Source: Chiloscyllium plagiosum
Taxonomy: Eukaryota
Direction: 5' to 3'
DNA length: 31,264 nucleotides
NCBI RefSeq assembly: GCF_004010195.1
Contig: NC_057718.1
Coordinates: 1,470,346 to 1,501,609, forward strand
Below are positions 2,421-25,789 of the stretch, piece by piece. The notes under the pieces were generated by a model that made no database searches, had not been told where the DNA came from, and worked only from the letters and a program-made list of their open reading frames with translations. A program made the position numbers and the translations under genes. The stretch's first letter is position 1; each line of letters begins with the position of its first letter.

Positions 2421-2631
2421 ATGGGAGATTTGCTTGTGTGGTTCGGTAGAGTTTAAACTAGTTNNNNGGTGCAAACTAGAGCTACACATCTGAGAGGGGG
2501 GTAATTGTAGGTGGGGCAGTGACAGGATGTAGTGAATCTATCGGGATGCATTATCATGTGATGAAACAAAGGGATTGGTTAAAGCAGGTCTGCTTTAATG
2601 CAAGGAGTGTCAGAAATCAGCGTGATGAACT

Positions 2632-2653
2632 TTAGATTAGATTAGATTAGATT
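2632..2653 (+). repeat. (TTAGA)n microsatellite
   Basis: ttagattagattagattagatt read directly. Confidence 0.85.
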
Positions 2654-2775
2654 TGTTTGTTTGACCAGCAGCATCTCTCCTTGAATATCCACTATACACC
2701 TGCTTAAAACAACAAGCAAAGTTAGGGTCTGATCTATTTCTTGAAATATTTTGAGGGAGTCTGGCCTGGTCATTA
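2654..2775. mobile_element. LTR fragment, inverted relative to the copy at 19977
   Basis: Its reverse complement (ccagactccctcaaaatattt...ctaactttgcttgttgttttaagcaggtgta) aligns by eye to 19990-20070. Confidence 0.75.
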
Positions 2776-3170
2776 ATACTTTATCTAATACCCATTCAAT
2801 TTTATAAACCTCCATAAGATCACCCCTCAGCCTCCTATACTCCGAGCGAAAAAACCTATTCAGCCTCTTCTCATAACTCAAACCTTCCAGTGTAATAACC
2901 GTCCTTGTAAACCTTTTTTGCACCTTACCAGTTTAATAACATTCTTCCTATAGCAGGGCAACCAGACTTATATGCATGGGGCCTTATCAATATCTCATGC
3001 AGCTATAACATATTATCCCAACTCTTGTACTCAATTCTCTGACTGATAAAGGCAAGCGTGCCAAATGCCTTCTTTACCACCTTGTTAATCTGTGATGCCA
3101 CTTTCAAGGAACAATATACGTGTATCTTTAGGTCTCTCTGTTAGACAGCACTCCACAAGGTCTGTATTTA
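2776..3170 (-). mobile_element. CR1 LINE RT C-terminal fragment
   Basis: ORF 2642-2923(-): QKRFTR...LEGLSYEKRLNR...RRLRGDLMEVYKI. Confidence 0.85.
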
Positions 3171-3660
3171 TCTAAATTAAACTCCATTGCTGAAATGCTG
3201 AGTTTCTCTAGCAATTTCTGTTTTTGTGTTATGGAGGGACATAGATGGGTTAAATGAGGGGGTAAAGATCAGGTAAATGGACTATACTATGGGAAAATGT
3301 TAAATTGTCCATTTTGTCAGGAACAATAAGAATGAAGCATATTCCCTAAATGGTGAGAGACTGCAAAGCTCTATGAAGCAGAGGGATTGGAGTGTCCTAA
3401 TGCATGAGCCACAAAAACTCTCATATCCAGGGTAGAACAAGTAATAGGAAAGCCAATAGAATGTTCCAATTTATTGCAAAAAAATTTGAATAGAATGCAG
3501 GGAGGTTATGCTTCAATTGAACAGGGCATTGATCAGACCACATTTGGAGCACTGGGTACAGTGTTGGTTTCCTTACTTATGGAAAGATGTAAATACATTG
3601 GAAGCAGTTTAGAAAAGGGTTACAAAATTAATAGCTAGAATAGGCAGGTTATCCCATGAG

Positions 3661-4221
3661 TTAAGAATGTGTTGCTGGAAAAGCACAGCAGGTCAGGCAG
3701 CTTCTGAGGAGCTGGAAAATCAATGTTTCGGGCCAGACCCCTTCATCAGGAATGAGAGTTTCCATTCTTTTCCAGCAACACACTCTCAACTCTGATCCTC
3801 AGATGCTGCCTGACCTGCTGTGCTTTTCCAGCAACATATTCTCAACTCTGACTCCTCGGATGCTGCCTGACCTGCTGTACTTTTCCAGCAACACACTCTC
3901 AACTCTAACTCCTCAGATGCTGCCTGATCTGCTGTACTTTTCCAGTAACACACTTTCAATTCTGATCCTCGGATGCTGCCTGATCTGCTGTGCTTTTCCA
4001 GCAACATATTCTCAACTCTGATCCTCGGATGCTGCCTGACCTGCTGTGCTTTTCCCGCAACACACTTACAACTCTGATCCTCAGATGCTGCCTGACGTGC
4101 TGTGCTTTTCCAGCAACACATTCTCAACTCTGACTCCTCGGATGCTGCCTGATCTGCTGTGCTTTTCCAGCAACACACTCTCAACTCTGATCTCCAGCAT
4201 CTGCAGAGTTCACTGTCTCCT
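3661..4221. mobile_element. Penelope-type (pLTR-derived) inverted element with internal tandem expansion
   Basis: Flanked by a 15-bp duplication aggttatcc(c/a)atgag (3646-3660 / 4222-4236). The left arm gtgttgctggaaaagcacagcaggtcaggcagc is the reverse complement of the downstream units, and a CTGATGA..GAAA motif lies on the minus strand. Confidence 0.7.
3766..4192 (+). repeat. 56/57-bp tandem repeat, about 7.5 copies
   Basis: Unit is approximately ttttccagcaacacactctcaactctgatcctcagatgctgcctgacctgctgtgc; gatgctgcc occurs 7 times; the ORF track shows 19-aa periodicity. Confidence 0.92.
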
Positions 4222-4599
4222 AGGTTATCCAATGAGGAAAGATTAGGCAGGATAGGCTTCTATCCACTGGAGTTTAGATGGGTAACATATAATCTGATTG
4301 AAATTTGCAAAATCCTGAGGATTCTTGACAGGGGACATGTGGAAAGGATGATTTTCTCATGTGGGAGAATCTAGAACTAAGGTCACCGTTTCAATATATG
4401 TAGGTGCCCACTTAAGAAAAAGATGAGAATTTCTTTCTCACAGAACTATGAGTCTCTTGAACTCTTTCTGGGAAGAAAAAGTGAAAAAACACACAACACT
4501 GCTTAGAAATTAATGTACTGTTTGTGCTGGAGCTCCACTTAGAAGAACAGTATACAATGAGTTGGTTCAGTATCAGGGGTTAAGGAGATAACGTGTAAT

Positions 4600-4915
4600 A
4601 ATGCACTACATTAATTATGGGTGATTTTAATCTTCATGCAGATTGGCAAAATCAAATTGGCAGACGTATTCATGAGGAAGAATTCATCGAATGTATTTGG
4701 GATAGTTTCCTGAAATAATATGTTGTGTATCCAATCAGGGATCAGGTGATTTTGGATCTGGTATTGTATAATGAGGTTCAATAAATGAACTTTGAGTAAG
4801 AGAAAGCTCATAATGACCTATACATTGTAGAATTTAGCATTCACGTTGAAAGTGAGAAAGTTGAAGCAGAGAAAAACTGTGCTAAACTTAAATAAGGGTA
4901 ATGAGGGCAGAGATA
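4600..4915 (+). mobile_element. Older CR1 endonuclease fragment, probably continuing at about 6945-7740
   Basis: IMGDFNL at about 4615 and HEEEFIECIWDSFL; CR1 linker/RT-start-like sequence resumes after 6945 (KSFFKYL, ICLIQKG). Confidence 0.6.
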
Positions 4916-4924
4916 CTTGGAAGT

Positions 4925-6938
4925 GTAAGGTAAAATAGAGCAAAGTCAGCATGGTTTCATCAAGGGAAAGTCATGCCTGACAGATCTGCTATAATGTTTT
5001 GAGGAAGTAATGAGCAGGTGAGACAAAGGACAGCCAATGGATGTTAGCTTCTTGGACTTCAAGAACGCCTTTGACAAGGTGCCACACAGGAGGCTACTGA
5101 GTATGATGAGGGTCCATGGTGTCAGAGGCAAGGTGCTAGCATGGATAGAAGCTTGACTGTCTAGCAAAAAACAGAGAATGGGGATAAAAAGGTCTTTCTC
5201 AGGATGACCAAGTGGTGCTCCACAAGGCTCAATGTTGGGACCACAACTTTTTATTTTATTCATTAATGATCTGGATGAAGGAACTGAGGGTACTCTGGCA
5301 AAGTTTGCAGATGAAACAAAGATATGTAGAGGGACAGGTAGCATTGAAGAGGCAGGAAGACTGTTGAAGGATTTGGACAGGTTACGAGAGTGGACAAAGA
5401 AGTGGCAGATGGAGTACAATATGGGAAAGTGTAAGGTCACGCACTTTGGTAGGCATGGACTATTTTCTATATGGGGAGAAAATTCAGAAGTCTGAAATGC
5501 AAAAAGACTTGGAAATTCTAGTCCAGAATTCTCTCAATGTAAACTTGCAGGTTGAGTCAGTAGTGAGGAAGGCAAATGTAATGTTGGCATTTATTTTGAC
5601 AGAAGTTGAATATAAAAGAAGGGATGTACTTCCGAGACTCTATTAAGGCTCTGGTAACACCACATTTGGAGTATCATGCGCGGTTTTGGGCCCCGTATCT
5701 CAGGAAGGATGTACTGGCCCTGGAGCATGTTCAGAGGAAGTTCACGAGAATGGTCCCAGAAATGAAAAGCTTAACATATGGGGAATGTTTGAGGACTCTG
5801 GATTTACACTCAATGGTGTTTAGAGGGGGGATCTAATTGAAACATACAGAATACTGAATTGCCTGGACAGAGTAGATGCTGGGAAGAGATTTCCACTGGT
5901 AGGAGAGACTAGGACCTGAGGGAATAGCCTTAGAGAAAAGGAAGACTTTCAGAACAGAGATAAGGAGAAATATCTTCAGCCAGAGAATCTATGGAATCTA
6001 TGGAATTCATTGCCACAGAAGGCTGTGGATGTCAGGTCGTTGAGTATATTTAAGACTGAGATAGATGGGTTCTTGAGTATTTTTATGTCATGGGGTAAAC
6101 TCTCCTGCTTAATTTAAACCAGCAGCATAGAAAAGATTTATTCCCACGCATTAATCTGAAAATTCGAGAGGCCAAGGACTATTTAAAGTAAAAATTAACA
6201 ATTTTATTTCTTAAAGTATAACAGGGAATAGTTAGCTAACAACTATTTACAACTCCTTCCTCTAACCTATCTTTTACTTTCCTTTCAATAATAATAGTCC
6301 GATTAAACCCCTGATTAAGATTTATCAAAAAATTAAATTTTCAAAACCAGCTAGATGTCAAATCTTCTCTTTATATCTTCCACAGTCTTCTTTTCTTCTT
6401 CTTAGAGATTTCTGTTTCACAGGTTACTGATCGGTAAAGGTATCCTTAAGAGAGCTATTCTCCAGGCAGTCTGCAGAGGCCGGTGGCTTGGTAATTCTCC
6501 TCCCAATTGTTCACTTTTCCCCGGTCTTATACCCCCAAGCATCAGATTGTGTCACTGGCTTTTAAGATTGTCAATGTACTAAATTCAGATTGATTTGAGT
6601 TTGGCATGTTTTGGGGTATAACTTAAACTGATTGGCCTAATTCGAATTTGTTTTGTCATTTCCAAGCAACCAGCTACCCTAGCTACTAGATCAAAAGGCT
6701 ACGTTATATCTTGTTCAGAAGAGTTGGTGCTGTCAGGTAGTTCTGCTAGCTTTTAACTCTCTTAAAGGTACAGCACACCCACACATTCATAACAGTATCA
6801 AAGGGATCAAAGGTTACAGGCATAAAGCGGGAGAATTAGGTTGAAAAACTTACCAGCCATAATTGAATGGCAGAGTAGACTCCATGGGCTGAATAGCTGA
6901 ATTTCTGTTCCTATGTCTTATAGACTTGTGGTCTTATA
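4925..6938 (+). mobile_element. CR1 LINE (RT through 3' tail), disrupted, with a solo LTR in its 3' end
   Basis: QHGFIKGKSCLT, LDFKNAFDKVPH, PQGSMLGPQLFILFINDLDEG, KFADETK, PHLEYHARFWAPYLRKD; internal stops and frameshifts; tail tatgtcttat...gtcttatag. Confidence 0.92.
6086..6794 (-). mobile_element. Solo LTR (about 710 bp)
   Basis: TGTCAT...ATAACA termini; it splits the CR1 3' end; its reverse complement begins tgttatgaa...ctgtacctttaagagag like the LTR at 20431; TATA-like ggggtataa on the minus strand. Confidence 0.85.
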
Positions 6939-7300
6939 GTTTCCCACAGTAGATTGGGAAAGGAGAAAATAAGGTTGATGAACATTTGTCAGATGTTTAA
7001 AAAAAGTCAATGACTCGAAGCATGCCAGTGAGAAAGAAAGATACTCAGATGGGGATAAACTGACACAATAGTTAACCGGTGAAATTAAATATCAAATTGA
7101 GGAATGTTTTGATAGCCAACAAAAGATTACCAAAAAATAAAGAAGAGGAGGATAATAAACTGAGGAAAAACTAGAAAGTAACATAAAAACAGACAGATAG
7201 CAAGAGCTTCTTTAAATATTTATAAAGGATGAGAGAGGCAGCAGTGAACATAGGTCCCTTAAAGAACAAGACTGAGGAAATATAATAGAAAACAGGAAAT

Positions 7301-7406
7301 GCTGTGGTTCTGCACAGCAGAAACGTTTGCAACAAAAACTTCCAACTCGGCGAACAGAACCACAGCAACGAGCACCCGAGCTACAAATCTTCGCACAAAC
7401 TTTGAA
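7301..7406. mobile_element. Short inverted-repeat insertion (second Penelope-type family, truncated)
   Basis: gctgtggttctg / cagaaccacagc inverted pair; caggaaatg is duplicated on both sides within CR1 sequence. Confidence 0.55.
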
Positions 7407-8350
7407 AGCAGGAAATGGCAGAAGAGGGGGACCAAACATTTTGCACTAGTCTTCACATTCAAGGATAATAACAGCACTCCAAAAATAATAAATAATCTAG
7501 GGGCTAAAAGGAAGGAGGGAATAAACACAATGTCATGAGGGAAATTAATGGGGTTAAAGGTTACAAAGACCTGATATGTCAATTTTGGGATTTTAAGGGA
7601 AGTAGCTGCAGATATAGTGGATATGGTGGATACATTGGTAGGAATCTTCTGAGAACTCTTAGATTCTGGAAAAGTCCCAGGGAATTAGAAAATTGCCAAT
7701 GTATTTGCCTTATTCAAAAAGGAAGGGAGACAGATTACAGGTAACTGTTTAAAAACTCCGTCCGGGTATCCATTGATTTGCTCCCTTTGTACCTGTTAAT
7801 CACCTTTTTTCTTTCTGATTGAGTCCTGAATACTTTGGAGATCCAGAATTACCTGAGCTTGTTGTTCCTATATTTCACTCTAAAGGGTCTTCACTCTTCC
7901 TAGTTCCATTCTGAATGCTCCTCTACATGCCCCTCTTCAACAGATTTACCCAAAGGTCACTATTCCCAGTCACCGTCGGCCAGATCCTGCATTTGTTTTA
8001 ATAAAACAAAAAATCCTGGGAATCACAGCAAGTCAGGCAGCATCCAGGGAGAGAGAGAGAGAGAGAGCAAGTTAATGTTTTGAGTCAAGATGTCTCTTCA
8101 TTCGAGCTGACGTAAGTGTGCAGGGGCAGCATTTATGCAATGGTGGGGGGGTGGAGTGCTGGGAGAAGAAAGAGTGTTGATAGAGTTGATTAAATGATAG
8201 AAATGTGAGAAAGGCAGGACAATTGTTTTTACACACCTCAGTGAATTGATTACAGACTTATTCGCCTATTGATCGATAATTGTTGGGAGTCTACAATACA
8301 CTTGCAGCAATGTAACTGTTCCATTTTATTCCTAAACAGTACCCACAAAG

Positions 8351-8678
8351 GGGCAGCCTGGCATCTCATTGGTTAGCACTGCTGCCTCACAGCGCCAGGC
8401 ACTCGGTTTCGATTCCAGCTTCGGGCGACTGTCTGTGTGGTTTGCATGTTCTCCCTGCATCTGCGTGGATTTCTTCCCACAACCCAAAGATGTGCGGGTT
8501 AAGTGCACTGACCATGCAAAATTGCCCACAGTGTTCAGGATTGTGTAGGTTAAGTGCTTAGTCAGGGGTAAATTTAGGATAGGGGAATGGGTCTGGGTGG
8601 GTTACTCTTCAGAGGGTCGGTGTGGATTTGTTTTTGGGCTGAAGGGCCTGTTTCCACACTGTAGGGACTCTATGATTC
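8351..8678 (+). mobile_element. tRNA-derived V-SINE (HE1-like), near full length
   Basis: tRNA head with A box (cattggttagc) and B box (ggtttcgattcca); V-domain-like tgtgtggtttgcatgttctccc; CR1-like tail gggcctgtttccacactgtagggactctatg. Confidence 0.88.
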
Positions 8679-9243
8679 GAAAGCCTCTTTTAGAGATTCT
8701 TCTAAGATATCATACCTCATTACTGCAGGAGCTGACTCCTTTATTAATAACCGAACACCACCTTCTCTCTGATATCCTCCCCTGTACACCTGCAGATTTT
8801 ATACTGCAGAATGTTGAGTTGCCACTCCTGCCCCTCCCTCAATCATGTCTCTATGATAACAACAACATTTAATTCAATGTGACAAGCCATGCCCTTAACA
8901 CACCTTGTCTTACCTGCAATATATCTAGCATTAAAGGAGAGGTCAGCCAGCTTCACGTTACTTTCTTGAAACACATGGCTGAACTCGCTCAGCCTTTATT
9001 CCTTGACTAAAGTGGTTCAGTATCCCTTTGTACTAACACTCTGTGTCTCCTTGCCTGGTGAACTACTTTAAATTCTGATTAAGAGCACTGGCAAATCTAC
9101 CCACAAGAACGGTTCAGGTGCAGACCATCTTGCTTGTCCAGATTCTATCTTCCCCAGAAATGGTCCCAGTGATCCTGAAATTGCTGAAAAAATACAGCAA
9201 GTCTGATAGTACATGTGGAGAGAAGGCAGAGTTGATGTTTTTT

Positions 9244-9432
9244 TTAGATTACATTACAGTGTGGAAACAGGCCCTTCAGCCCAACAAGTCCACACCGACC
9301 CGCCGAAGCGCAACCCACCCATACCCCTACACTTACCCCTTACCTAACACTACGGGCAATTTGGCATGGCCAATTCACCTGACCTGCACATCTTTGGACT
9401 GTGGGAGGAAACCGGAGCACCCGGAGGAAACC
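9244..9432 (-). mobile_element. HE1-like SINE, 3' half only, cut off by the 32-bp array
   Basis: cagtgtggaaacaggcccttcagccca...gggcaatttggcatggccaattcacctgacctgcacatctttgga is the reverse complement of the 8351 SINE's 3' half; the tRNA head is absent. Confidence 0.88.
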
Positions 9433-12400
9433 GGGCTCTGAGCCAATGTGAGGCAGGGCAGGCCGGGCTCTGAGCCAATGTGAGGCAGGGCAGGCCGGGC
9501 TCTGAGCCAATGTGAGGCAGGGCAGGCCGGGCTCTGAGCCAATGTGAGGCAGGGCAGGCCGGGCTCTGAGCCAATGTGAGGCAGGGCAGGCCGGGCTCTG
9601 AGCCAATGTGAGGCAGGGCAGGCCGGGCTCTGAGCCAATGTGAGGCAGGGCAGGCCGGGCTCTGAGCCAATGTGAGGCAGGGCAGGCCGGGCTCTGAGCC
9701 AATGTGAGGCAGGGCAGGCCGGGCTCTGAGCCAATGTGAGGCAGGGCAGGCCGGGCTCTGAGCCAATGTGAGGCAGGGCAGGCCGGGCTCTGAGCCAATG
9801 TGAGGCAGGGCAGGCCGGGCTCTGAGCCAATGTGAGGCAGGGCAGGCCGGGCTCTGAGCCAATGTGAGGCAGGGCAGGCCGGGCTCTGAGCCAATGTGAG
9901 GCAGGGCAGGCCGGGCTCTGAGCCAATGTGAGGCAGGGCAGGCCGGGCTCTGAGCCAATGTGAGGCAGGGCAGGCCGGGCTCTGAGCCAATGTGAGGCAG
10001 GGCAGGCCGGGCTCTGAGCCAATGTGAGGCAGGGCAGGCCGGGCTCTGAGCCAATGTGAGGCAGGGCAGGCCGGGCTCTGAGCCAATGTGAGGCAGGGCA
10101 GGCCGGGCTCTGAGCCAATGTGAGGCAGGGCAGGCCGGGCTCTGAGCCAATGTGAGGCAGGGCAGGCCGGGCTCTGAGCCAATGTGAGGCAGGGCAGGCC
10201 GGGCTCTGAGCCAATGTGAGGCAGGGCAGGCCGGGCTCTGAGCCAATGTGAGGCAGGGCAGGCCGGGCTCTGAGCCAATGTGAGGCAGGGCAGGCCGGGC
10301 TCTGAGCCAATGTGAGGCAGGGCAGGCCGGGCTCTGAGCCAATGTGAGGCAGGGCAGGCCGGGCTCTGAGCCAATGTGAGGCAGGGCAGGCCGGGCTCTG
10401 AGCCAATGTGAGGCAGGGCAGGCCGGGCTCTGAGCCAATGTGAGGCAGGGCAGGCCGGGCTCTGAGCCAATGTGAGGCAGGGCAGGCCGGGCTCTGAGCC
10501 AATGTGAGGCAGGGCAGGCCGGGCTCTGAGCCAATGTGAGGCAGGGCAGGCCGGGCTCTGAGCCAATGTGAGGCAGGGCAGGCCGGGCTCTGAGCCAATG
10601 TGAGGCAGGGCAGGCCGGGCTCTGAGCCAATGTGAGGCAGGGCAGGCCGGGCTCTGAGCCAATGTGAGGCAGGGCAGGCCGGGCTCTGAGCCAATGTGAG
10701 GCAGGGCAGGCCGGGCTCTGAGCCAATGTGAGGCAGGGCAGGCCGGGCTCTGAGCCAATGTGAGGCAGGGCAGGCCGGGCTCTGAGCCAATGTGAGGCAG
10801 GGCAGGCCGGGCTCTGAGCCAATGTGAGGCAGGGCAGGCCGGGCTCTGAGCCAATGTGAGGCAGGGCAGGCCGGGCTCTGAGCCAATGTGAGGCAGGGCA
10901 GGCCGGGCTCTGAGCCAATGTGAGGCAGGGCAGGCCGGGCTCTGAGCCAATGTGAGGCAGGGCAGGCCGGGCTCTGAGCCAATGTGAGGCAGGGCAGGCC
11001 GGGCTCTGAGCCAATGTGAGGCAGGGCAGGCCGGGCTCTGAGCCAATGTGAGGCAGGGCAGGCCGGGCTCTGAGCCAATGTGAGGCAGGGCAGGCCGGGC
11101 TCTGAGCCAATGTGAGGCAGGGCAGGCCGGGCTCTGAGCCAATGTGAGGCAGGGCAGGCCGGGCTCTGAGCCAATGTGAGGCAGGGCAGGCCGGGCTCTG
11201 AGCCAATGTGAGGCAGGGCAGGCCGGGCTCTGAGCCAATGTGAGGCAGGGCAGGCCGGGCTCTGAGCCAATGTGAGGCAGGGCAGGCCGGGCTCTGAGCC
11301 AATGTGAGGCAGGGCAGGCCGGGCTCTGAGCCAATGTGAGGCAGGGCAGGCCGGGCTCTGAGCCAATGTGAGGCAGGGCAGGCCGGGCTCTGAGCCAATG
11401 TGAGGCAGGGCAGGCCGGGCTCTGAGCCAATGTGAGGCAGGGCAGGCCGGGCTCTGAGCCAATGTGAGGCAGGGCAGGCCGGGCTCTGAGCCAATGTGAG
11501 GCAGGGCAGGCCGGGCTCTGAGCCAATGTGAGGCAGGGCAGGCCGGGCTCTGAGCCAATGTGAGGCAGGGCAGGCCGGGCTCTGAGCCAATGTGAGGCAG
11601 GGCAGGCCGGGCTCTGAGCCAATGTGAGGCAGGGCAGGCCGGGCTCTGAGCCAATGTGAGGCAGGGCAGGCCGGGCTCTGAGCCAATGTGAGGCAGGGCA
11701 GGCCGGGCTCTGAGCCAATGTGAGGCAGGGCAGGCCGGGCTCTGAGCCAATGTGAGGCAGGGCAGGCCGGGCTCTGAGCCAATGTGAGGCAGGGCAGGCC
11801 GGGCTCTGAGCCAATGTGAGGCAGGGCAGGCCGGGCTCTGAGCCAATGTGAGGCAGGGCAGGCCGGGCTCTGAGCCAATGTGAGGCAGGGCAGGCCGGGC
11901 TCTGAGCCAATGTGAGGCAGGGCAGGCCGGGCTCTGAGCCAATGTGAGGCAGGGCAGGCCGGGCTCTGAGCCAATGTGAGGCAGGGCAGGCCGGGCTCTG
12001 AGCCAATGTGAGGCAGGGCAGGCCGGGCTCTGAGCCAATGTGAGGCAGGGCAGGCCGGGCTCTGAGCCAATGTGAGGCAGGGCAGGCCGGGCTCTGAGCC
12101 AATGTGAGGCAGGGCAGGCCGGGCTCTGAGCCAATGTGAGGCAGGGCAGGCCGGGCTCTGAGCCAATGTGAGGCAGGGCAGGCCGGGCTCTGAGCCAATG
12201 TGAGGCAGGGCAGGCCGGGCTCTGAGCCAATGTGAGGCAGGGCAGGCCGGGCTCTGAGCCAATGTGAGGCAGGGCAGGCCGGGCTCTGAGCCAATGTGAG
12301 GCAGGGCAGGCCGGGCTCTGAGCCAATGTGAGGCAGGGCAGGCCGGGCTCTGAGCCAATGTGAGGCAGGGCAGGCCGGGCTCTGAGCCAATGTGAGGCAG

Positions 12401-15400
12401 GGCAGGCCGGGCTCTGAGCCAATGTGAGGCAGGGCAGGCCGGGCTCTGAGCCAATGTGAGGCAGGGCAGGCCGGGCTCTGAGCCAATGTGAGGCAGGGCA
12501 GGCCGGGCTCTGAGCCAATGTGAGGCAGGGCAGGCCGGGCTCTGAGCCAATGTGAGGCAGGGCAGGCCGGGCTCTGAGCCAATGTGAGGCAGGGCAGGCC
12601 GGGCTCTGAGCCAATGTGAGGCAGGGCAGGCCGGGCTCTGAGCCAATGTGAGGCAGGGCAGGCCGGGCTCTGAGCCAATGTGAGGCAGGGCAGGCCGGGC
12701 TCTGAGCCAATGTGAGGCAGGGCAGGCCGGGCTCTGAGCCAATGTGAGGCAGGGCAGGCCGGGCTCTGAGCCAATGTGAGGCAGGGCAGGCCGGGCTCTG
12801 AGCCAATGTGAGGCAGGGCAGGCCGGGCTCTGAGCCAATGTGAGGCAGGGCAGGCCGGGCTCTGAGCCAATGTGAGGCAGGGCAGGCCGGGCTCTGAGCC
12901 AATGTGAGGCAGGGCAGGCCGGGCTCTGAGCCAATGTGAGGCAGGGCAGGCCGGGCTCTGAGCCAATGTGAGGCAGGGCAGGCCGGGCTCTGAGCCAATG
13001 TGAGGCAGGGCAGGCCGGGCTCTGAGCCAATGTGAGGCAGGGCAGGCCGGGCTCTGAGCCAATGTGAGGCAGGGCAGGCCGGGCTCTGAGCCAATGTGAG
13101 GCAGGGCAGGCCGGGCTCTGAGCCAATGTGAGGCAGGGCAGGCCGGGCTCTGAGCCAATGTGAGGCAGGGCAGGCCGGGCTCTGAGCCAATGTGAGGCAG
13201 GGCAGGCCGGGCTCTGAGCCAATGTGAGGCAGGGCAGGCCGGGCTCTGAGCCAATGTGAGGCAGGGCAGGCCGGGCTCTGAGCCAATGTGAGGCAGGGCA
13301 GGCCGGGCTCTGAGCCAATGTGAGGCAGGGCAGGCCGGGCTCTGAGCCAATGTGAGGCAGGGCAGGCCGGGCTCTGAGCCAATGTGAGGCAGGGCAGGCC
13401 GGGCTCTGAGCCAATGTGAGGCAGGGCAGGCCGGGCTCTGAGCCAATGTGAGGCAGGGCAGGCCGGGCTCTGAGCCAATGTGAGGCAGGGCAGGCCGGGC
13501 TCTGAGCCAATGTGAGGCAGGGCAGGCCGGGCTCTGAGCCAATGTGAGGCAGGGCAGGCCGGGCTCTGAGCCAATGTGAGGCAGGGCAGGCCGGGCTCTG
13601 AGCCAATGTGAGGCAGGGCAGGCCGGGCTCTGAGCCAATGTGAGGCAGGGCAGGCCGGGCTCTGAGCCAATGTGAGGCAGGGCAGGCCGGGCTCTGAGCC
13701 AATGTGAGGCAGGGCAGGCCGGGCTCTGAGCCAATGTGAGGCAGGGCAGGCCGGGCTCTGAGCCAATGTGAGGCAGGGCAGGCCGGGCTCTGAGCCAATG
13801 TGAGGCAGGGCAGGCCGGGCTCTGAGCCAATGTGAGGCAGGGCAGGCCGGGCTCTGAGCCAATGTGAGGCAGGGCAGGCCGGGCTCTGAGCCAATGTGAG
13901 GCAGGGCAGGCCGGGCTCTGAGCCAATGTGAGGCAGGGCAGGCCGGGCTCTGAGCCAATGTGAGGCAGGGCAGGCCGGGCTCTGAGCCAATGTGAGGCAG
14001 GGCAGGCCGGGCTCTGAGCCAATGTGAGGCAGGGCAGGCCGGGCTCTGAGCCAATGTGAGGCAGGGCAGGCCGGGCTCTGAGCCAATGTGAGGCAGGGCA
14101 GGCCGGGCTCTGAGCCAATGTGAGGCAGGGCAGGCCGGGCTCTGAGCCAATGTGAGGCAGGGCAGGCCGGGCTCTGAGCCAATGTGAGGCAGGGCAGGCC
14201 GGGCTCTGAGCCAATGTGAGGCAGGGCAGGCCGGGCTCTGAGCCAATGTGAGGCAGGGCAGGCCGGGCTCTGAGCCAATGTGAGGCAGGGCAGGCCGGGC
14301 TCTGAGCCAATGTGAGGCAGGGCAGGCCGGGCTCTGAGCCAATGTGAGGCAGGGCAGGCCGGGCTCTGAGCCAATGTGAGGCAGGGCAGGCCGGGCTCTG
14401 AGCCAATGTGAGGCAGGGCAGGCCGGGCTCTGAGCCAATGTGAGGCAGGGCAGGCCGGGCTCTGAGCCAATGTGAGGCAGGGCAGGCCGGGCTCTGAGCC
14501 AATGTGAGGCAGGGCAGGCCGGGCTCTGAGCCAATGTGAGGCAGGGCAGGCCGGGCTCTGAGCCAATGTGAGGCAGGGCAGGCCGGGCTCTGAGCCAATG
14601 TGAGGCAGGGCAGGCCGGGCTCTGAGCCAATGTGAGGCAGGGCAGGCCGGGCTCTGAGCCAATGTGAGGCAGGGCAGGCCGGGCTCTGAGCCAATGTGAG
14701 GCAGGGCAGGCCGGGCTCTGAGCCAATGTGAGGCAGGGCAGGCCGGGCTCTGAGCCAATGTGAGGCAGGGCAGGCCGGGCTCTGAGCCAATGTGAGGCAG
14801 GGCAGGCCGGGCTCTGAGCCAATGTGAGGCAGGGCAGGCCGGGCTCTGAGCCAATGTGAGGCAGGGCAGGCCGGGCTCTGAGCCAATGTGAGGCAGGGCA
14901 GGCCGGGCTCTGAGCCAATGTGAGGCAGGGCAGGCCGGGCTCTGAGCCAATGTGAGGCAGGGCAGGCCGGGCTCTGAGCCAATGTGAGGCAGGGCAGGCC
15001 GGGCTCTGAGCCAATGTGAGGCAGGGCAGGCCGGGCTCTGAGCCAATGTGAGGCAGGGCAGGCCGGGCTCTGAGCCAATGTGAGGCAGGGCAGGCCGGGC
15101 TCTGAGCCAATGTGAGGCAGGGCAGGCCGGGCTCTGAGCCAATGTGAGGCAGGGCAGGCCGGGCTCTGAGCCAATGTGAGGCAGGGCAGGCCGGGCTCTG
15201 AGCCAATGTGAGGCAGGGCAGGCCGGGCTCTGAGCCAATGTGAGGCAGGGCAGGCCGGGCTCTGAGCCAATGTGAGGCAGGGCAGGCCGGGCTCTGAGCC
15301 AATGTGAGGCAGGGCAGGCCGGGCTCTGAGCCAATGTGAGGCAGGGCAGGCCGGGCTCTGAGCCAATGTGAGGCAGGGCAGGCCGGGCTCTGAGCCAATG

Positions 15401-15720
15401 TGAGGCAGGGCAGGCCGGGCTCTGAGCCAATGTGAGGCAGGGCAGGCCGGGCTCTGAGCCAATGTGAGGCAGGGCAGGCCGGGCTCTGAGCCAATGTGAG
15501 GCAGGGCAGGCCGGGCTCTGAGCCAATGTGAGGCAGGGCAGGCCGGGCTCTGAGCCAATGTGAGGCAGGGCAGGCCGGGCTCTGAGCCAATGTGAGGCAG
15601 GGCAGGCCGGGCTCTGAGCCAATGTGAGGCAGGGCAGGCCGGGCTCTGAGCCAATGTGAGGCAGGGCAGGCCGGGCTCTGAGCCAATGTGAGGCAGGGCA
15701 GGCCGGGCTCTGAGCCAATG
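9431..15720 (+). repeat. Perfect 32-bp minisatellite (CCGGGCTCTGAGCCAATGTGAGGCAGGGCAGG) x196 plus 18 bp
   Basis: First CCAAT at 9443 and last perfect-phase CCAAT at 15715: (15715-9443)/32 = 196 exactly. No variant unit is visible, and the translated repeats are invariant. Confidence 0.99.
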
Positions 15721-15945
15721 GGAGGGGTGCAGGGTGGGCCTGGCTCTGAGCCAATGGGGAGCAGGGCGGGCCGGGTTGTGAGCCAATGGGACCAGGGCAG
15801 GCCAGACTCTGAGCCAATGGGGGAAGGGCGGGTCAAGTTCTGAGCTAATGGCGGCAGGGGAGCCGCGCGCTTCGTTGGGATGTGTTGGTACGTGCAGCGA
15901 CAGCGGTTGGGATTTGAATGTTGGCGCGGGAGCGGGAGCCTCAGG
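15703..15945 (+). promoter_or_regulatory. CpG-rich promoter-like module: phased CCAAT boxes, GC boxes, CHR and E2F-like sites
   Basis: AGCCAATG with CCAAT at 15715, 15751, 15783 and 15814, plus CTAAT at 15845 (31-36 bp spacing). GGGCGG at 15764 and 15826, TTTGAA at 15913, TTGGCGCGGGA at 15921. Local CpG enrichment against a CpG-poor background. Confidence 0.65.
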
Positions 15946-18124
15946 TCTTCCTCTGTGGAACCCCGGTCCCAAACCGTTCCTCAAAACCAAACATGTGAAA
16001 TAGTGTTCTTCCCTGAATTTCAGTTTGCATTTCTATATTGCCTTTATTTTGGAAAACAATCCAAGGCCCTTTACAAGTGATATCAGGCCTGTCCAAAAGC
16101 TTATTGAAAGAGGGCTGTAGGTAGTGAAAGACATTTGAAAACAATGATAGTTTTAAAATTGTGGCGTTATTACACTAACCCCCAGTATAGGGCAGTGAGT
16201 ATGTGCCTGTGCTGCATTCATTTTCAATTACAATTTGGCAGCAATCTTGGAGGTGTTATTGACTATAATGGAGGCATGTGCTGATAATCAAGTCCCACTA
16301 CACCACGTGTCATACTCGCAGTGTAAAAGTTTTGATTTATTCATCAAAATAGTCCATTTTTAGCCTTTCTGCATTTCAATGCAGAATAAAAGATTCCTGG
16401 ATTTTACTGGATTTTTAAAAATGAACTCACTAATTTATCCATTATATTATAAAACTCACTATTAAACAAGTGGCCAGACTGGTCAACGTTTAAAAGATAA
16501 TTGGAAATTAGAAAGTAAGCAACATGGTCAGTGTGAGGGAGATCTGCTGCCCTGAGTCAGAATTAGAGTAACTGGGAATTTGGGTCAAGGTGGGAATTCA
16601 ACTGGTAAATCTTTTTGCAAATTTAATTATAAGACTGAAAATAATCAGGCCTAATCTTTAGGGAAGTTAAAATAGCCCAGTTAAACAGGCAACTGCCTGC
16701 TAGTAGCAGTTAACTATCAAACAACTGAATTTTTGGCGTTGATAACCGGCAGGACGTTAAAAAAGTGACTCATCAGTGCTGTCTACGTAATAAGGGCTTG
16801 CTGAAAGTGCACCCTCAAAGCTGCATCGTCAGAGGGGCAAGACTTTGCTGGAGTGAGGCAGAGATAGGATGAATAATGGGGAATTTGAGTCAAAATGGGA
16901 AATCAGACCAGGGGCAGAGGGGAAAAAGAGTTGCGATTCAGAGGCCCATCTACACTGAAACCAATAGTGAATGATTCAGAAGAAGCAGCTGACTGGTGAG
17001 TAGGTTTGGTCTCTAATCATCAAATTTTGGGTATTTGGTTTGTAATTAAGTCTCAACAACTTTTAGGAAGTTTTTTTGTGAGGAATAACTTGATAAGTAT
17101 TTATATTAATTCATTTTTATACTAAGGGTAACAAGTACTTTTTAGTGTTACAAGATGGCAATTCAGAAAGGCTAAATAGAGTGTACTTCCAATGATATGT
17201 GTGAAGTTATGGGCATACCCCCTACATGTCCCAGATAATAACATCCGTAAGGAGAAAATTAAAAATCACACAACACCAGGTCATAGTCACCTGCATCTAT
17301 TTATTGCCTTCCCAGCTACCTTCCCTCCACACTCACCCCCCTTCTAGATGAAGGGCACGTGCCCGAAACATCAATTCTCCTGCTCCTTGGATGCTGTCTG
17401 ACCTGCTGTGCTTTTCCAGTGCCACACCTTTTGACTATGGCACAGAAGGAGGCTATTCAGTCCATTGTGCTTTTACTAGTTCTATTACCTAGTACCAATC
17501 TCCTGCCTTATCCCCACATCCTGATGCACCATTTCTAAAAAACAATCATCCAATGCCCTTAATTGAACGTGCTTCCACATTTCCAGGCAGTGTATATCCT
17601 AACTGCTCACGTCACTCTTCCATCATTTGCACATTACTTTAAATCTGTGCCCTCTCGTTTTTTATTTGTTTACAAATGGGAACGGCTGTTCTCTGTTCTT
17701 AAGTCTAACTTGCTTACTTACTGATATTCCACCTAGGAAACTGGTGAGGGTGATAGTTCCTTATTGAAGTGCAGCCGGAGCCAAACCCATGACAACAAGA
17801 GTGACTGAGCTGCACAAGGCAAGAGGAAATAAGACAAGTGTTTCTGGGGCTTGAATCATGATTTCAGGACGGTGTATTGCCTTCCTTGTGCCAGGGTCAA
17901 AGATGTCACAGAGCTGCTGCAGGACATCCTTCTGAGAGACAGGAAACAGCTAGAATCCACTTTGGTACTAACAACTTAGGTAAGAAGTGGGATGAGGTCC
18001 TCAAGGGCAGATTTCAGGGATTTAGGAAGGAAATTTAAAAACAGGACCTTGAGCAATAATCTCAGGATTACAGCCAGTACCAAATGCTTTCAAGCATATG
18101 TACAGTTGGATTAATCAATTGAAT

Positions 18125-18290
18125 ATAGAGTCATAGTCATACAGTCACAGAGACGTACAGCATGGAAACTGACCCTTCAGTCCAACCCATCCATGCCGAC
18201 CAGATATCCCAACCCAATCTAGTCCCACCTGCCAGCACCCGGCCCATATCACTCCAAACCCTTCCTATTCATATACCGATCCAAATACTT
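18125..18290 (-). mobile_element. CR1 3' terminal fragment
   Basis: catagagtcatag-type tail and cagcatggaaactgacccttcagtccaa match the reverse complement of the CR1 tail at 1770-1838. Confidence 0.75.
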
Positions 18291-18324
18291 TTGTAAAATA
18301 AGGATAATGTTATCATTGTCCTAC

Positions 18325-18514
18325 TTTCTCATTAGAGCAAGAGCCACCTAATGGTGGCTTTAACTGAGGGTCACCATATTACAGGCAAGGGGCACTGCTG
18401 AGAAGGAGAGGTCTTTGAATCAAGCTCAGCCTGTGTAAGAATTGAACCAATGTTATGGCAACATCATTCTGTATTACAGCTCATATGTCTAGCCTACTGA
18501 GCTAACCAATCCCC
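18325..18514 (-). mobile_element. tRNA-derived SINE
   Basis: The minus strand begins ggggattggttagctcagtagg (A box) and contains ggttcaattc (B box) followed by a SINE-like body. Confidence 0.65.
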
Positions 18515-18524
18515 TTTTAACACG

Positions 18525-18606
18525 TGGCAACAGTGAGATCTGAACCCACGCCTCCTTAGAGACTGGAGTCTACATCCAGCACCTTAGACTGCTCAGCCAC
18601 ACTACT
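18525..18606 (-). pseudogene. tRNA-Leu(TAG) pseudogene
   Basis: The 82-nt minus-strand sequence agtagtgtggctgagcagtctaaggtgctggatgTAGactccagtctctaaggaggcgtgggttcagatctcactgttgcca aligns to vertebrate tRNA-Leu(UAG). It shows CpG-type transitions, mutated U33 and T-loop, and no oligo-T terminator. Confidence 0.85.
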
Positions 18607-19976
18607 TGAATTGTTGTCAGAGAGAAGACATCAGCTTTGAAGATTTTGGACTGGTTCTGGGACAGTTAGGGTCTATACAGGCTGAATGGGTTACACCCTA
18701 ATGGGATTGAGACTTGCATGGAGATTTGCTATTGCTGTTGAGCTATTTTAAATTAGCTTGAAAGGGAGACAGGAACCTGCTGTGGGTTGACCCATTGTAC
18801 CATTAGGGAGGGAATTCCAGGATTTTCTCCCAGTAACAGCGATATTGGAACCGGTCCTTTTATTCTAGATGGAAATGATCATGGATTTGGAAGGTGCTGT
18901 CTAAGGATACGTCTTGTAGATAGTACACAGTGCTGCTACTGAGTGTCAGTGGTAGAGGGAGTCACTACTTGTGAATTTAGTGTCAATAAATGGGATAGAT
19001 TACGAACAAATCTGGCATCTCAAGAATTGGCATCCATGAGGTGCTGTAGCCTATCAACAGCAGAATTGTACTCCATGACAATCTGAACCCCACGGCCCCC
19101 AGCATATCCTCCACTCAACCGTTACTGTCAAGTCACAAGATGGACCCTGATTCAATGGAGAGTGCAAGAGGGCATATCTGGAGATGAGGTGTCAACCTGG
19201 TGAAGCTATTAACAAGGCTACTTGCATGCCAACCAGCAGAAGCAGCAAGTGATGGACAGAACTAAGGGATCCCAGAACCTACAGATCAGATCTGAGCTTT
19301 GCAGTAGCTCCATATCTAATTGTGAATGGTGGTAGACAATTGAACAACTCATTGGAGGAGATGGCTCTGCAGATATTCTCATTCTCAATGATGAAGAGTC
19401 TGGCACACCAGTTCAAAAGATAAGACTGAAGCTTTTGCAGCAATCTTTAGCCAGAAGTGCCGAGTGGACGAACCAAATCAGCTATGTCCAGAGGTCCCCA
19501 GCACTATAGATACCAGTTTTCAACCAATTCAATTCACTTCACGTGGTATCAAGAAACAGTCAAAGACACTGAAAAGGCTATCGGCGCTGACAACAATAAT
19601 ATTGAAGGTTTGTGCCCCAGAACTTGTGCTCCCTTTCCCCATTCCAGTACAATTACAACACTGGCTCAGCTCTACCATGGACAAAAGAGCTGAATTCCAG
19701 AAGTGAGATGAGAGTGACTGTCCTTGACATCAAGGCTGCATTTAATAGAGTGTGGCATCAAGGAGCTTAAGCTAAACTGAATCAATGGGTATTAGTGGAC
19801 AAACTATCTAGTGATTGGAGTCATACCTGGCACATAGGGAGATGGTTGTGGTTGTTGAAGATCAGTCATCTCAGCTCCAGGACACCTCTGCGGGAGCTCC
19901 TCAGGGTGGTGTCCTCGGCCCAACCATCTTCAGCTACTTCAATGACCTTCTCTCCATCATAAGGTCAGAAGGGGAT

Positions 19977-20270
19977 TGTTATGGACCTGACCAGACCCCC
20001 TTAAAATATTTAAAGAAAGTCGCCCAGACTCTAACTTTGCTAGTTGTTTTAAGCAGGTGTAGAAGTGGTTATTCCAGGAGCGAAACAGCTAGCCTAACCA
20101 CTTAGTTTTAAACAAAGCAGAATTTATTTCCAAGATTACCAAATGAAACAATAACATGAGAATGGAACACTGGATAATTTAACCTATCTGAAAACCCAAC
20201 AGATCATCCCAACTTAATGATCCTGTTCTAAATACTTGCAACAATTCCCATAAACACTCCTTGGCACAGC
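19977..20270 (-). mobile_element. Partial LTR related to the 29972-30581 LTR, followed by a (GA)n tract
   Basis: Starts tgttatggacc..ccagacc..aactttgc like 29972. The LINE resumes at about 20325 without its FADD region, implying a deletion. Confidence 0.75.
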
Positions 20271-20430
20271 GAAGACAAATAGAGAGAGAGAGAGAGAGAC
20301 ACACAGAGAGACAGCGAGACAGCAACCTCCTGACGCCCCAAAGCCTGTCCACCATCTACAAGACATGTCATGAGTGTGATGGAATACTCCCCACTTGTCT
20401 GAGCAGCCCCAACAACACTCAAAAAGCTTG

Positions 20431-21110
20431 TGTTATGAAGTTGAAGGTATGTACTGTACCTTTAAGAGAGAGTGAAAGCTGGCACACACCTGCCATGTGA
20501 CTGACTCAAAGTCACAGTATGTGCTGAAAAATTGAAAGATGTAACATTTTGCTGTAACCTTGATACCACAGTTGTTTTCACAGCAGGTCAAATTTAACTG
20601 ATTTAAATTATGCCCCAAGATACTAAAACCCAACCAAATTTGAATTTTATTGTTTTGACAACATCGAACCAATGAGACAATCCGATTTTTGGGGTATAAA
20701 AAAGCAGACATTTTGGACAGTTGGACAGAAAGACTGCTAGTCACCACACTCTCTGTGAAAGGTACTCTTTTCACATGAAACATCTTTGCAGCAGAAGACT
20801 GAAGACGACAGAGGAAGATTGACACCCGCTGTCTAGTTTTGAAAATTAAGTTGCTGTAAATTTAAAGGGACTTTATTGGATCAGTATATTGTTAGAGTGG
20901 GAAGTAGGTAACAAATCATTAAGAGACAGGAGGCTTAGCATTGTAAATAGTTGTTGTTTAATGTTCGGTTTTGGCATTGAAGAATAAAATGGATATTTTT
21001 GTTAAATTTGGGTAGTTCAGTCACTCATACTTTAACAGATTATGAGGCGAGGTGAGCTTTTCTGTATGTTTGGTTTAATTAGCAGAAGGGTTTACTGCTG
21101 TATTGTAGCA
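20431..21110 (+). mobile_element. Solo LTR (680 bp) with 4-bp TSD
   Basis: TGTTAT...TAGCA termini with CTTG on both sides (20427-20430, 21111-21114); internal CCAAT, TATAAAA and AATAAA in LTR order. Confidence 0.9.
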
Positions 21111-21289
21111 CTTGTCACCATTCAAGACAAAGCTGCCTATTTGATTGACACCACATCTATAAGTAGTCACTCTCTCCACTCAGAAGCAGCAGCATGTACT
21201 ATCTACAAGATGCACTACAGAAATTCACCAACATCCTCAGACAGCATCTTCCAAATCCACAACCACTTCCATCTAGAATGACAAGAGCA

Positions 21290-22232
21290 GTTGATAAGGT
21301 TCCCCACGGTAGGCTATTGCAGAAAATAAGGAGGGATGGGATTGAGGGTGATTTATTGGTTTGGATCAGAAATTTCTCAGTTAATGGGAAATGTTCATCC
21401 TGGAGTTCAGTTACTGGTGATGCTCTGCAAGGATCTGTTTTGGGGCCACTGCTGTTTCTCATTTTTATAAATGACCTGGATGATGGCGTAGAAGGATGTG
21501 TTAGTAAATTTGCAGATGATGCTAAAGTCGGTGGAGTAGTGGATAGTGCGGAAGGATGTTGCAGGTTACAGAGAGATGTAGATAAGCTGGGCTGAGAGGT
21601 GGCAAATGGAGTATAATGTGGAACAGTGTGAGATGATTCACTTTGGAAGGAGTAACAGGAATGCAGAGTACTGGATTAATGTAATGTAACCAGAGAGATT
21701 TGTGTTCATGTGCATAGATCTCTGAATGTTGCCACCCAGGTTGATAGGGTTGTTAGGAAGGGGTACAGTGTGTTAGCTTTTATTGGTAGAGGGGATTGGA
21801 GCCATGAGGTCATGTTGCAGCTGTACAAAACTCGAGTGCGGCTGCATTTGGAGTATTACGTACAAGTTCTGGCCGCCACATTACAGGAAGGATGTGGAAG
21901 TTTTGGAAAGAGTTCAGAGGAAACTTACTAGGATGTTGCCTGGTATGGAGGGAAGGTCATATGAGGAAAGGCTGAGGGACTCGAGGCTGTTTTTGTTAGA
22001 GAGAAGATGTTGAAAGGTGACCTATTGAGACAGATAAGATGATCAGAGGATTAGATAGGGTGAACGGTGAGAGCCTTTTTCCTTGGATGGTGATGGCTAG
22101 CATGAGGAGACATAGCTTTCAATTGAGGGGGCGATAGATATAGGACAGATGTCAGAGCTGGTTTCTTTACTTAGAGTGATAGGGGTGTGGAACGGCCTGC
22201 CTGCAACATAGTAGACTCACCAAATTGAAGGG
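21290..22232 (+). mobile_element. CR1 LINE RT fragment running into the gap
   Basis: DKVPHGRLLQKI, QGSVLGPLLFLIFINDLDDG, SKFADDAK and LERVQRKLTRM. Confidence 0.92.
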
Positions 22233-22732
22233 NNNNNNNNNNNNNNNNNNNNNNNNNNNNNNNNNNNNNNNNNNNNNNNNNNNNNNNNNNNNNNNNNNNN
22301 NNNNNNNNNNNNNNNNNNNNNNNNNNNNNNNNNNNNNNNNNNNNNNNNNNNNNNNNNNNNNNNNNNNNNNNNNNNNNNNNNNNNNNNNNNNNNNNNNNNN
22401 NNNNNNNNNNNNNNNNNNNNNNNNNNNNNNNNNNNNNNNNNNNNNNNNNNNNNNNNNNNNNNNNNNNNNNNNNNNNNNNNNNNNNNNNNNNNNNNNNNNN
22501 NNNNNNNNNNNNNNNNNNNNNNNNNNNNNNNNNNNNNNNNNNNNNNNNNNNNNNNNNNNNNNNNNNNNNNNNNNNNNNNNNNNNNNNNNNNNNNNNNNNN
22601 NNNNNNNNNNNNNNNNNNNNNNNNNNNNNNNNNNNNNNNNNNNNNNNNNNNNNNNNNNNNNNNNNNNNNNNNNNNNNNNNNNNNNNNNNNNNNNNNNNNN
22701 NNNNNNNNNNNNNNNNNNNNNNNNNNNNNNNN
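22233..22732. other. Assembly gap (exactly 500 N)
   Basis: Run of N; the round length suggests a placeholder size. Confidence 0.99.
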
Positions 22733-22765
22733 GTGATCAGCCTGGGGAGCGCCGAGGTGGGCAAG
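22733..22765 (+). CDS. DNAJC27: DNAJC27 (RBJ, Rab-like GTPase plus J domain), 3' end of coding exon 1; start lost in the gap
   Basis: gtg atc agc ctg ggg agc gcc gag gtg ggc aag = VISLGSAEVGK (human VISMGNAEVGK, P-loop), followed by donor AAG|GTGAGG in phase 0, matching the next exon; GC-rich context. Confidence 0.92.
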
Positions 22766-24371: not shown

Positions 24372-24454
24372 AGCTGTATCATTAAACGATACTGTGAGAA
24401 GAGGTTTGTCCCAAAATATTTGGCAACTATTGGAATTGACTATGGAGTGACAAA
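24372..24454 (+). CDS. DNAJC27: DNAJC27 coding exon 2 (83 nt)
   Basis: Acceptor tgtctttccag and donor aa|gtgagt; translates SCIIKRYCEKRFVPKYLATIGIDYGVT(K), versus human SCIIKRYCEKRFVSKYLATIGIDYGVTK as recalled. Confidence 0.96.
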
Positions 24455-24724
24455 GTGAGTACTACTAGGGATGCTACTTTTCTCCCTACCTTTAGTTGGT
24501 TTTCCTGATAGTAATTATTGTTAAATGTTAAAATCACAATTGGTAATAAGAGTATCCACTTGAATTAAACACATTCCTGTTCCAAGAAAATTTGAGAAGC
24601 ATTATCGAGTATTTGAAATAAGTTTAGATGATGAGACAGAAAGGGAGAGATTGGTGTGTGAGAGGGGTGTCACTGGGGAACAGGGGTTTGACCAGTAAGG
24701 GGAGGGTAGTACTGAAAACTAATT

Positions 24725-25263: not shown

Positions 25264-25297
<34 letters not shown>

Positions 25298-25680: not shown

Positions 25681-25789
25681 AACAGCATGAGACCTGGAGC
25701 AAAGCATTCAGCACCCTGAACCTGTTCCAGCATTCCTATTGCAAAGACAGAATGATCTTATTTGACTTTATTTCTGACTGGAGTTAGAA

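Follow-up and report, generated by a model that had tools for sequence, protein, structure and literature searches.

Why does a stretch of shark DNA carry CCAAT boxes by the hundred, about one in every 32 bp and all on the same strand, and do these boxes regulate the gene that lies downstream of them? The stretch in question is a long tandem array upstream of DNAJC27, within 31,264 nucleotides (the window) from Chiloscyllium plagiosum (C9:1470346-1501609, in an assembly of 3.56 Gb and 101,977 contigs). An earlier reading of this DNA, here called the original prediction, took the array for a unit of an NF-Y-driven cell-cycle promoter that had been amplified about 200-fold and would now form a tunable NF-Y platform, a nucleosome-depleted domain or a factor sink between the two host genes, here an adenylate-cyclase gene and DNAJC27. 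On balance we lean towards a plainer answer: the array would be an ordinary GC-rich, G-strand-biased minisatellite with a 32-bp unit, grown from an older cluster of CCAAT and GC boxes, and the amplified CCAAT boxes would be its passengers.

Anatomy and near-uniqueness of the array

Tandem Repeats Finder reported the region 9431-15859 of the window as one array (period 32, 200.9 copies, 99% matches, score 12640). Divided in register with 9431 as the first base, it yielded 196 units identical to CCGGGCTCTGAGCCAATGTGAGGCAGGGCAGG at 9431-15702 with zero variants, and five diverged units after them. Motif counts over 9431-15859 returned 200 CCAAT on the plus strand and not a single ATTGG, as against 32 CCAAT and 36 ATTGG in the remaining 24.8 kb. 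This bears out the claim that every 32-bp unit of an array of about 200 units carries a CCAAT box. The array and its right border are made up as follows:

9431 to 15702, plus strand: perfect array of 196 x 32 bp, each unit with GAGCCAATG (Tandem Repeats Finder, in-register cutting, motif counts)
15703 to 15862, plus strand: five diverged units, d1 to d5 (sequence and alignment; covered by a second individual's contig from 15796 on and by contigs of two related species)
15863 to 15990, plus strand: CpG-rich patch of 128 bp with 12 CpG (observed/expected 1.04), GC 0.60, TTTGAA at 15913-15918 and TTGGCGC at 15921-15927
15991 to 16740, no strand: single-copy right flank, AT-rich (GC 0.36, CpG observed/expected 0.21), with no recognisable exon (summed contig depth)

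The perfect array has a GC content of 0.688 and one CpG per unit (observed/expected 0.29), and its bins stand out with a GC of 0.69 and a GC skew of +0.27 against a GC of 0.37-0.48 in the rest of the window. Across the unit boundary runs GGGCAGGCCG, which agrees at 8 of 9 specified bases with the hypervariable minisatellite core motif GGGCAGGANG as quoted in PMC2408603. The array therefore has the features by which minisatellites are recognized, namely head-to-tail repetition of a unit of 10-100 bp, richness in GC, strand asymmetry and a core-like motif. With minisatellites of the Jeffreys type it shares the GC-rich unit of tens of bases, the strand asymmetry, the core-like GGGCAGG and the diverged end units. 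Length polymorphism and germline instability define this class, of which the array is a putative member, and it contains none of the variant units that real long minisatellites usually carry. Folding three units as single-stranded DNA gave no hairpin signal (z = -0.11 for the plus strand and +1.25 for the minus strand). Each unit has two G3 tracts with loops of 6 and 20 nt, the G-quadruplex potential being judged by eye.

A search of the whole assembly with the 32-mer, allowing up to 2 mismatches, resulted in 197 forward matches, no reverse match and none for the control, and the 100 matches listed of these 197 were all inside the C9 array. The 16-base core of the unit occurred 210 times, which is about 10 above the array's own supply and near chance for a genome of this size; four of the first 100 places listed were outside the array, on C2 and C3. 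Phased pairs of CCAATGGG were found at only two places, the right edge of the C9 array (three) and the end of the unplaced contig C73507 (two). Since the unit is confined to these two places in 3.56 Gb, it is neither a dispersed satellite, an outcome that the original prediction had named as a test of its own reading, nor part of a transposon.

To what extent the CCAAT box itself is unusual was judged from phased patterns. Three RRCCAATS at an exact 32-bp period matched 382 times in the genome, with about 195 of these matches in the C9 array, and the reversed control matched 445 times. The stricter RRCCAATSR, a pattern that leaves out the C9 array, gave 72 matches at 19 other places on 17 contigs, compared to 305 for its reversed control; phased CCAAT repeats are thus not enriched over the control, which speaks against an NF-Y platform. 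The array itself and its near-uniqueness exceed chance, and the presence of a CCAAT box in a 32-bp unit does not.

Most of the at least 19 phased places are unrelated tandem repeats of 32 or 16 bp, and a period of 32 bp is seemingly a common repeat length in this genome. Among the places are C7:33836363, C7:90502850, C7:96558908, C34:18052371, C45:3079905, C86470:523-4844, C93586:631 and C96222:15661. In three near-identical, non-tandem copies on the minus strand (C37:10000336, C75909:1914 and C85018:4904), a trio of good CCAAT boxes with 32-bp spacing is joined by a CpG-rich tail, which gives this stretch the look of a promoter from a small gene family with several copies.

The near-uniqueness also bears on the idea that the repeat codes for a protein with a 32-residue repeat on the minus strand or represents the internal tandem repeat of a mobile element. 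Across the array the minus strand is indeed open in all three frames, with open reading frames (ORFs) of 2,160-2,230 amino acids. However, neither the repeat nor any open frame entering it from the right contains an ATG, and the only Pfam matches fall below the curated cut-offs, so that a coding repeat on the minus strand was rejected. A mobile element is countered by the occurrence of the unit at just two places, which leaves no dispersed element. The Rfam search returned 0 family matches in the window. Either origin of the repeat is therefore far-fetched. As a side effect, the open minus strand at 9340-16032 could mislead automatic gene callers into predicting a giant repeat protein.

The older cluster at the right edge

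In the five diverged units, CCAAT starts at 15715, 15751, 15783 and 15814 and is followed by a CTAAT at 15845, resulting in spacings of 36, 32, 31 and 31 bp; GC boxes (GGGCGG) start at 15764 and 15826. The original prediction had described four such units at 15721-15850: diverged units do exist at this edge, but they number five and span 15703-15862. The spacing of 31-36 bp and the two GC boxes were found as described, and the CpG-rich region with CHR (cell cycle genes homology region) and E2F motifs, into which the edge was said to lead, corresponds to the 128-bp patch with TTTGAA and TTGGCGC.

An alignment of the perfect unit with d1 to d5 and the 3.5 units of C73507 revealed that TCTGAGCCAATG is nearly invariant and that the G-rich half of the unit varies. 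In eight diverged or variant units, 3 of the 96 cells of this 12-bp core are mismatched compared to 68 of 153 cells at the other 20 positions, a contrast that may be inflated, as the aligner was anchored on the core, indels fall in the G runs and the units share ancestry, which makes the cells not independent. Unit 3 of C73507 was left out of this count because it equals the array unit with one change. The amplified unit has GGGCAG at the place of the older GGGCGG, a CpG-to-CpA change by which the GC box is lost, and CCAATGT at the place of the older CCAATGG. NF-Y recognizes the consensus RRCCAATSR, and all 196 amplified units fit it in the CCAAT pentamer, in the purines at -2 and -1 and in the G at +1. 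Position +2 is a T in the 196 amplified units and a G in four of the five diverged units.

Contigs of three DNA runs (X5, X13 and X19) were compared over 15703-31264. A second individual with the same species label (X5) provided a 633-base contig on 15796-16428 with 2 differences. In related species C (X19), a 1,564-base contig covers 15704-17278 and extends 36 bases further left, with 84 other letters and 59 gaps, and related species B (X13) contributed short contigs over about 15702-15824. Two changes, 15776 T>C and 15778 G>C, are common to species B and C and bring back the consensus GGGCTCTGAG. No CCAAT pentamer is touched by the differences listed, which are the best-supported ones. The contigs of all three runs end in, or just left of, the diverged units; a repeat therefore begins there in each of them, and its length is not given by these breaks. 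The older edge cluster is real and old, being present in two related species. A look at related sharks had been proposed in the original prediction, and the contigs of both species carry the diverged CCAAT units.

From this anatomy we infer how the array may have grown. The starting point would have been a small, old cluster of tandem CCAAT/GC-box units upstream of DNAJC27, which would survive as the five diverged units. One decayed variant unit, equipped with a near-perfect minisatellite core, would then have expanded by replication slippage or unequal exchange, and its CCAAT boxes would have been carried along as passengers of the expansion and not as a selected NF-Y platform. The older cluster is the only part that bears apparent signs of constraint. 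The claim that one promoter unit expanded about 200-fold finds support insofar as the amplified unit is a variant of the older edge family; as for the promoter, no gene start was found at the edge.

How close the edge comes to a cell-cycle promoter can be read from the patch. It looks promoter-like. In the cyclin B2 promoter, three CCAAT boxes about 33 bp apart stand at a conserved distance from a TTTGAA CHR, and a cell cycle-dependent element (CDE) is located 4 nt upstream of the CHR (PMC3287175); this paper agrees with the spacing of about 32-33 bp which the original prediction had ascribed to promoters of the cyclin B2 type. A spacing near 33 bp between at least two CCAAT boxes, as expected for cell-cycle promoters, is present at 15715-15845, and here, too, boxes on one strand are followed by TTTGAA and by TTGGCGC, to which the G/C-rich element of such promoters is related. 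In contrast, cyclin B2-type promoters place two or three boxes immediately before the mapped start of a cell-cycle gene, and at the shark site neither a start nor such a gene was found; TTTGAA is separated by 99 bp from the last CCAAT and by 68 bp from the CTAAT. Moreover, the CDE position at 4 nt is vacant in the patch: the nearest GCGG is 6 nt upstream of TTTGAA, and TTGGCGC is 2 nt downstream of it. With both strands counted, 128 bp of this DNA should contain TTTGAA 0.12-0.15 times by chance, so that its presence does not exceed chance, and TTGGCGC is rare, with 2 copies in 183 kb, one of them the patch copy at 15921.

From 0.23-0.24 in the flanks, CpG observed/expected rises only to 0.29 within the array and 0.32 within the diverged units, whereas the patch reaches 1.04. 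The array is thus depleted of CpG like bulk DNA and therefore does not resemble a germline-unmethylated domain. CpG islands are usually required to have a length of at least 200 bp, a GC content of at least 0.5 and a CpG observed/expected of at least 0.6. The patch is only 128 bp long, a stretch of 238 bp has a GC of 0.496 at an observed/expected of 0.82, and array and diverged units are too poor in CpG, so that none of them is an island by this measure.

Several known systems help to weigh the NF-Y platform. The closest is the human ABO gene, in which a 43-bp minisatellite at about -3.8 kb carries a CCAAT box per unit, is reported to bind CBF/NF-Y and to act as a positive enhancer in some cell types, and occurs in one or four copies depending on the allele, although its functional importance is disputed (PMC7187371). 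Both loci have a CCAAT-bearing tandem repeat some kilobases upstream of a gene. They differ in size (1 or 4 x 43 bp versus 196 + 5 x 32 bp) and in that binding and activity at ABO are experimental, whereas the shark array is known from sequence only. In human cells, CCAAT motifs are bound by NF-Y even where chromatin is unmodified and closed, and tandem and long terminal repeat (LTR) repeats such as LTR12, MLT1 and R66 are among its targets (PMC3730095). Like the shark array, these are CCAAT-bearing repeated DNA, and NF-Y occupancy, often without active marks, is a feature of the human repeats; unlike it, they are dispersed LTR families or their relatives, and the shark unit sits at one or two loci with no recognisable element around it. 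In a genome-wide survey of NF-Y-bound double boxes the distances peaked at 24-27, 36 and 43 bp (PMC4889920), so that 32 bp is typical of one promoter class and not of NF-Y in general. An array of four CCAAT boxes is present in the Mrps12/Sarsm promoter (PMC1802594), and a minisatellite is also on record for BORIS (PMC4973313).

Multiplication of a short promoter piece in tandem beside its gene has other precedents, which differ from the shark array in the factors and genes concerned and in that function was shown there by experiment. They include the 60/81-bp enhancer repeats of Xenopus rDNA and the dodecamer expansion of CSTB, whose effects are ascribed to factor recruitment or altered spacing.

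An amplified platform would fit the intact CCAAT in every unit with its purines at -2/-1 and its G at +1, the phased older units with GC boxes, TTTGAA and TTGGCGC in the manner of cyclin B2, the core that is kept in the diverged units, the presence of the units in two related species, the ability of NF-Y to bind closed chromatin and tandem repeats, and the example of ABO. Yet the right edge yielded neither a transcription start nor an exon, the nearest coding exon being 6.9 kb away; the CDE spacing is off and TTTGAA is accounted for by chance; the CpG observed/expected of the array equals the genome background; and the amplified unit has lost its GC box and carries a T at +2 where older units have a G. 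A sink of about 200 sites would be small in comparison to the 5,000-15,000 NF-Y-bound sites reported for human cells (PMC3730095), and the gapped assembly is the only source of the copy number. DNAJC27 was not among the CHR genes in five of the six supplement files of PMC3287175 and not in nine of the ten supplement files of the NF-Y survey (PMC4889920), and a literature search found no paper linking it with NF-Y. We therefore regard an NF-Y platform as unlikely.

Some observations nevertheless weigh against an ordinary minisatellite. TCTGAGCCAATG is strongly kept, and with the two GC boxes, the spacing of 31-36 bp and TTTGAA plus TTGGCGC in a CpG-rich patch, the edge comes closer to a G2/M-type NF-Y promoter than one would expect from random decay at the border of a repeat. 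If the edge element were active, NF-Y could occupy the amplified units as well. Finally, a perfectly uniform array could be real, as a very recent expansion would give the same homogeneity as an assembly artefact. Within the explanation that we favour, too, the older cluster together with the CpG-rich patch may be a real NF-Y-type enhancer or an alternative start region for DNAJC27. The far-reaching version, in which diverged units and patch would form a conserved NF-Y/DREAM-type alternative promoter or enhancer of shark DNAJC27 and the array a real, recent and length-variable set of about 200 NF-Y sites that alters its output or holds open a kilobase-scale domain, appears very doubtful to us.

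Left junction and length of the array

The left end of the array differs from the right one. It is formed by the following element:

9246 to 9430, plus strand: copy of a short interspersed nuclear element (SINE) at the left junction, ending about 110 bp short of two other copies of its family (alignment with the copies at window +74 kb and +47 kb)

The SINE passes directly into the first perfect unit at 9431, and its 3' remainder was not found across the array on the far side. This suggests either a deletion breakpoint or an assembly join. A different border is offered by C73507, an unplaced contig of 2,993 bp. Its unique flank is followed by a pair of diverged CCAATGGG units, of which one has a GC box, then by an array-type unit with one change and by a variant unit, and the contig stops after 3.5 units, the array-type units having the same orientation as on C9. 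The variant unit has no exact match elsewhere and is missing from the C9 array. In the assembly and in the 191 kb around the window, nothing matched the flank of C73507 except dispersed repeats in these 191 kb. C73507 was therefore rejected as a haplotig of the left flank of the window: 84 high-scoring segment pairs were obtained, and the 80 listed are all within 626-781 or 1560-2090 of C73507. Its diverged edge looks like what a natural left edge should be, and the contig may come from the true left flank, from the alternative haplotype or from another locus. Just left of its CCAAT units, at 2100-2760, C73507 contains a degenerate G-rich repeat of about 40 bp (variants of GGGTTTATGGAGAAGG).

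These observations raise the question of whether the array in its present form is a product of the assembly, in which a shorter or more heterogeneous repeat was unrolled or homogenised into an estimated gap and joined to a contig ending in a SINE, with C73507 as the true left flank. Zero variants in 196 units are what consensus polishing or gap filling would be expected to give, and other repeats of the window are imperfect (a 56-bp repeat is 89% matched). The 191 kb around the window contain 13 N runs of 4-1,701 bases; this fits scaffolded short contigs, and a perfect 32-bp repeat of 6.3 kb is beyond what short reads can resolve. The junction inside a high-copy SINE, the composition of C73507 with its otherwise unmatched flank and the contig breaks in three DNA runs point in the same direction. 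On the other side, the array is located within a gap-free stretch of 19.8 kb (2468-22232), which suggests that it was bridged by some long-range data; C73507 could just as well stem from another locus or haplotype; and contig breaks reveal a repeat and not its length.

We consider it possible, rather than probable, that the assembly accounts for the array in this way, an explanation which overlaps with that of an ordinary minisatellite. What we infer on the role of the assembly is more limited: left junction and C73507 suggest an assembly error somewhere at the locus, the 196 perfect copies and the abrupt left junction were probably shaped by the assembly, and in reality the array may be shorter or less uniform, with diverged units of the C73507 type as its left border. 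The original prediction had itself cautioned that the length might be inflated, and the SINE junction and C73507 add weight to this caveat.

Gene context and meaning of the locus

For the gene context, 80 kb on either side of the window were fetched and scanned for reading frames. To the right of the single-copy flank, the window continues as follows:

16741 to 22232, no strand: interspersed repeats between the patch and the DNAJC27 start, with reverse-transcriptase fragments of long interspersed nuclear elements (LINEs), SINE and hairpin elements (in every bin a summed contig depth between 8,000 and 2.3 million for X5, with lower values for X13 and X19; reverse-transcriptase-like ORFs)
22233 to 22732, no strand: assembly gap of 500 N over the start codon and promoter of DNAJC27
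22733 to 22765, plus strand: end of DNAJC27 exon 1, VISLGSAEVGK, with the donor GTGAGG
24372 to 24455, plus strand: DNAJC27 exon 2, 28 amino acids of the Ras-family P-loop region, flanked by AG and GTGAGT

Exon 2 is identical to residues 30-57 of the shark DNAJC27 protein P0003, and a search with one exon of the gene returned DNAJC27 of sharks and other vertebrates, the best named matches having 96% identity. The Pfam Ras and Roc matches to this 28-residue piece are below the curated cut-off. Later exons at window +67.4, +71.4, +76.6, +77.3 and +78.6 kb exceed the Pfam cut-off, first for the Ras family, in collinear order, and then for DnaJ. In P0003, VISLGSAEVGK is preceded by 18 residues, which places the start codon of DNAJC27 and its promoter inside the gap at 22233-22732, and an annotation of the gene from this assembly would miss its first 18 codons.

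Between the right edge of the array and this gap lie 6.4 kb, and 6.9 kb separate the edge from what is visible of exon 1. The frame scan detected no gene start or exon at the right edge and none between 15,991 and 22,232. Among the listed sequencing runs that contain the right flank, none is recorded as RNA, and about 6 in 100 of the raw reads of one RNA run (X22, single-cell poly-A) placed 0 reads on 15703-31264, a sample that carries no weight for or against expression. Summed contig depth is 13-98 in both bins of 15703-16740, compared to thousands to millions further right. Before the insertion of these repeats, the CCAAT cluster may have been perhaps about 1 kb away from the DNAJC27 promoter.

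Adenylate-cyclase exons were found on both sides of the locus and on the plus strand: catalytic-domain exons (Pfam Guanylate_cyc) at window -48.5 to -44.1 kb, upstream of the array, and a first exon with AC_N (Pfam) at window +88.9 to +89.8 kb, downstream of DNAJC27. This corresponds to two cyclase genes in tandem or to an error in scaffold ordering. From synteny and sequence we take the cyclase to be type 3. In humans, CENPO adjoins ADCY3. It was considered as a cell-cycle neighbour of the array and rejected, as the CENP-O Pfam match is at C9:1007504-1007854 and PTH2 at C9:971763-971939, about 470 kb from the array.

Further repeats are spread over the window. The 56-bp tandem repeat at 3767-4192 (7.6 copies, 89% matched) is built from a hairpin-like element that recurs at 17.3-18.3, 27.5 and 29.6-29.8 kb and reaches a summed contig depth in the millions in all three DNA runs. 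By eye, LINE reverse-transcriptase fragments are present at 945-1790, 5208-5836 and 21167-22013, and an open frame that runs off the window end on the minus strand (30761-31264) resembles the reverse transcriptase/RNase H of an LTR retrotransposon.

The locus shows that a single CCAAT box per repeat unit can mimic a regulatory platform, and about 19 other phased-CCAAT repeats exist in the same genome. Its 196 perfect copies and sharp left edge are exactly what a gapped assembly can yield. The scale of the array would be unusual if confirmed, and its kind is already known. Most worthy of attention at the bench are the few conserved units on its right side. Should the array prove genuine at its present length and be occupied by NF-Y, it would provide a natural allelic series that relates the number of phased sites for a histone-like pioneer factor to chromatin and to the neighbouring gene, and would extend the four-copy case of ABO by two orders of magnitude.

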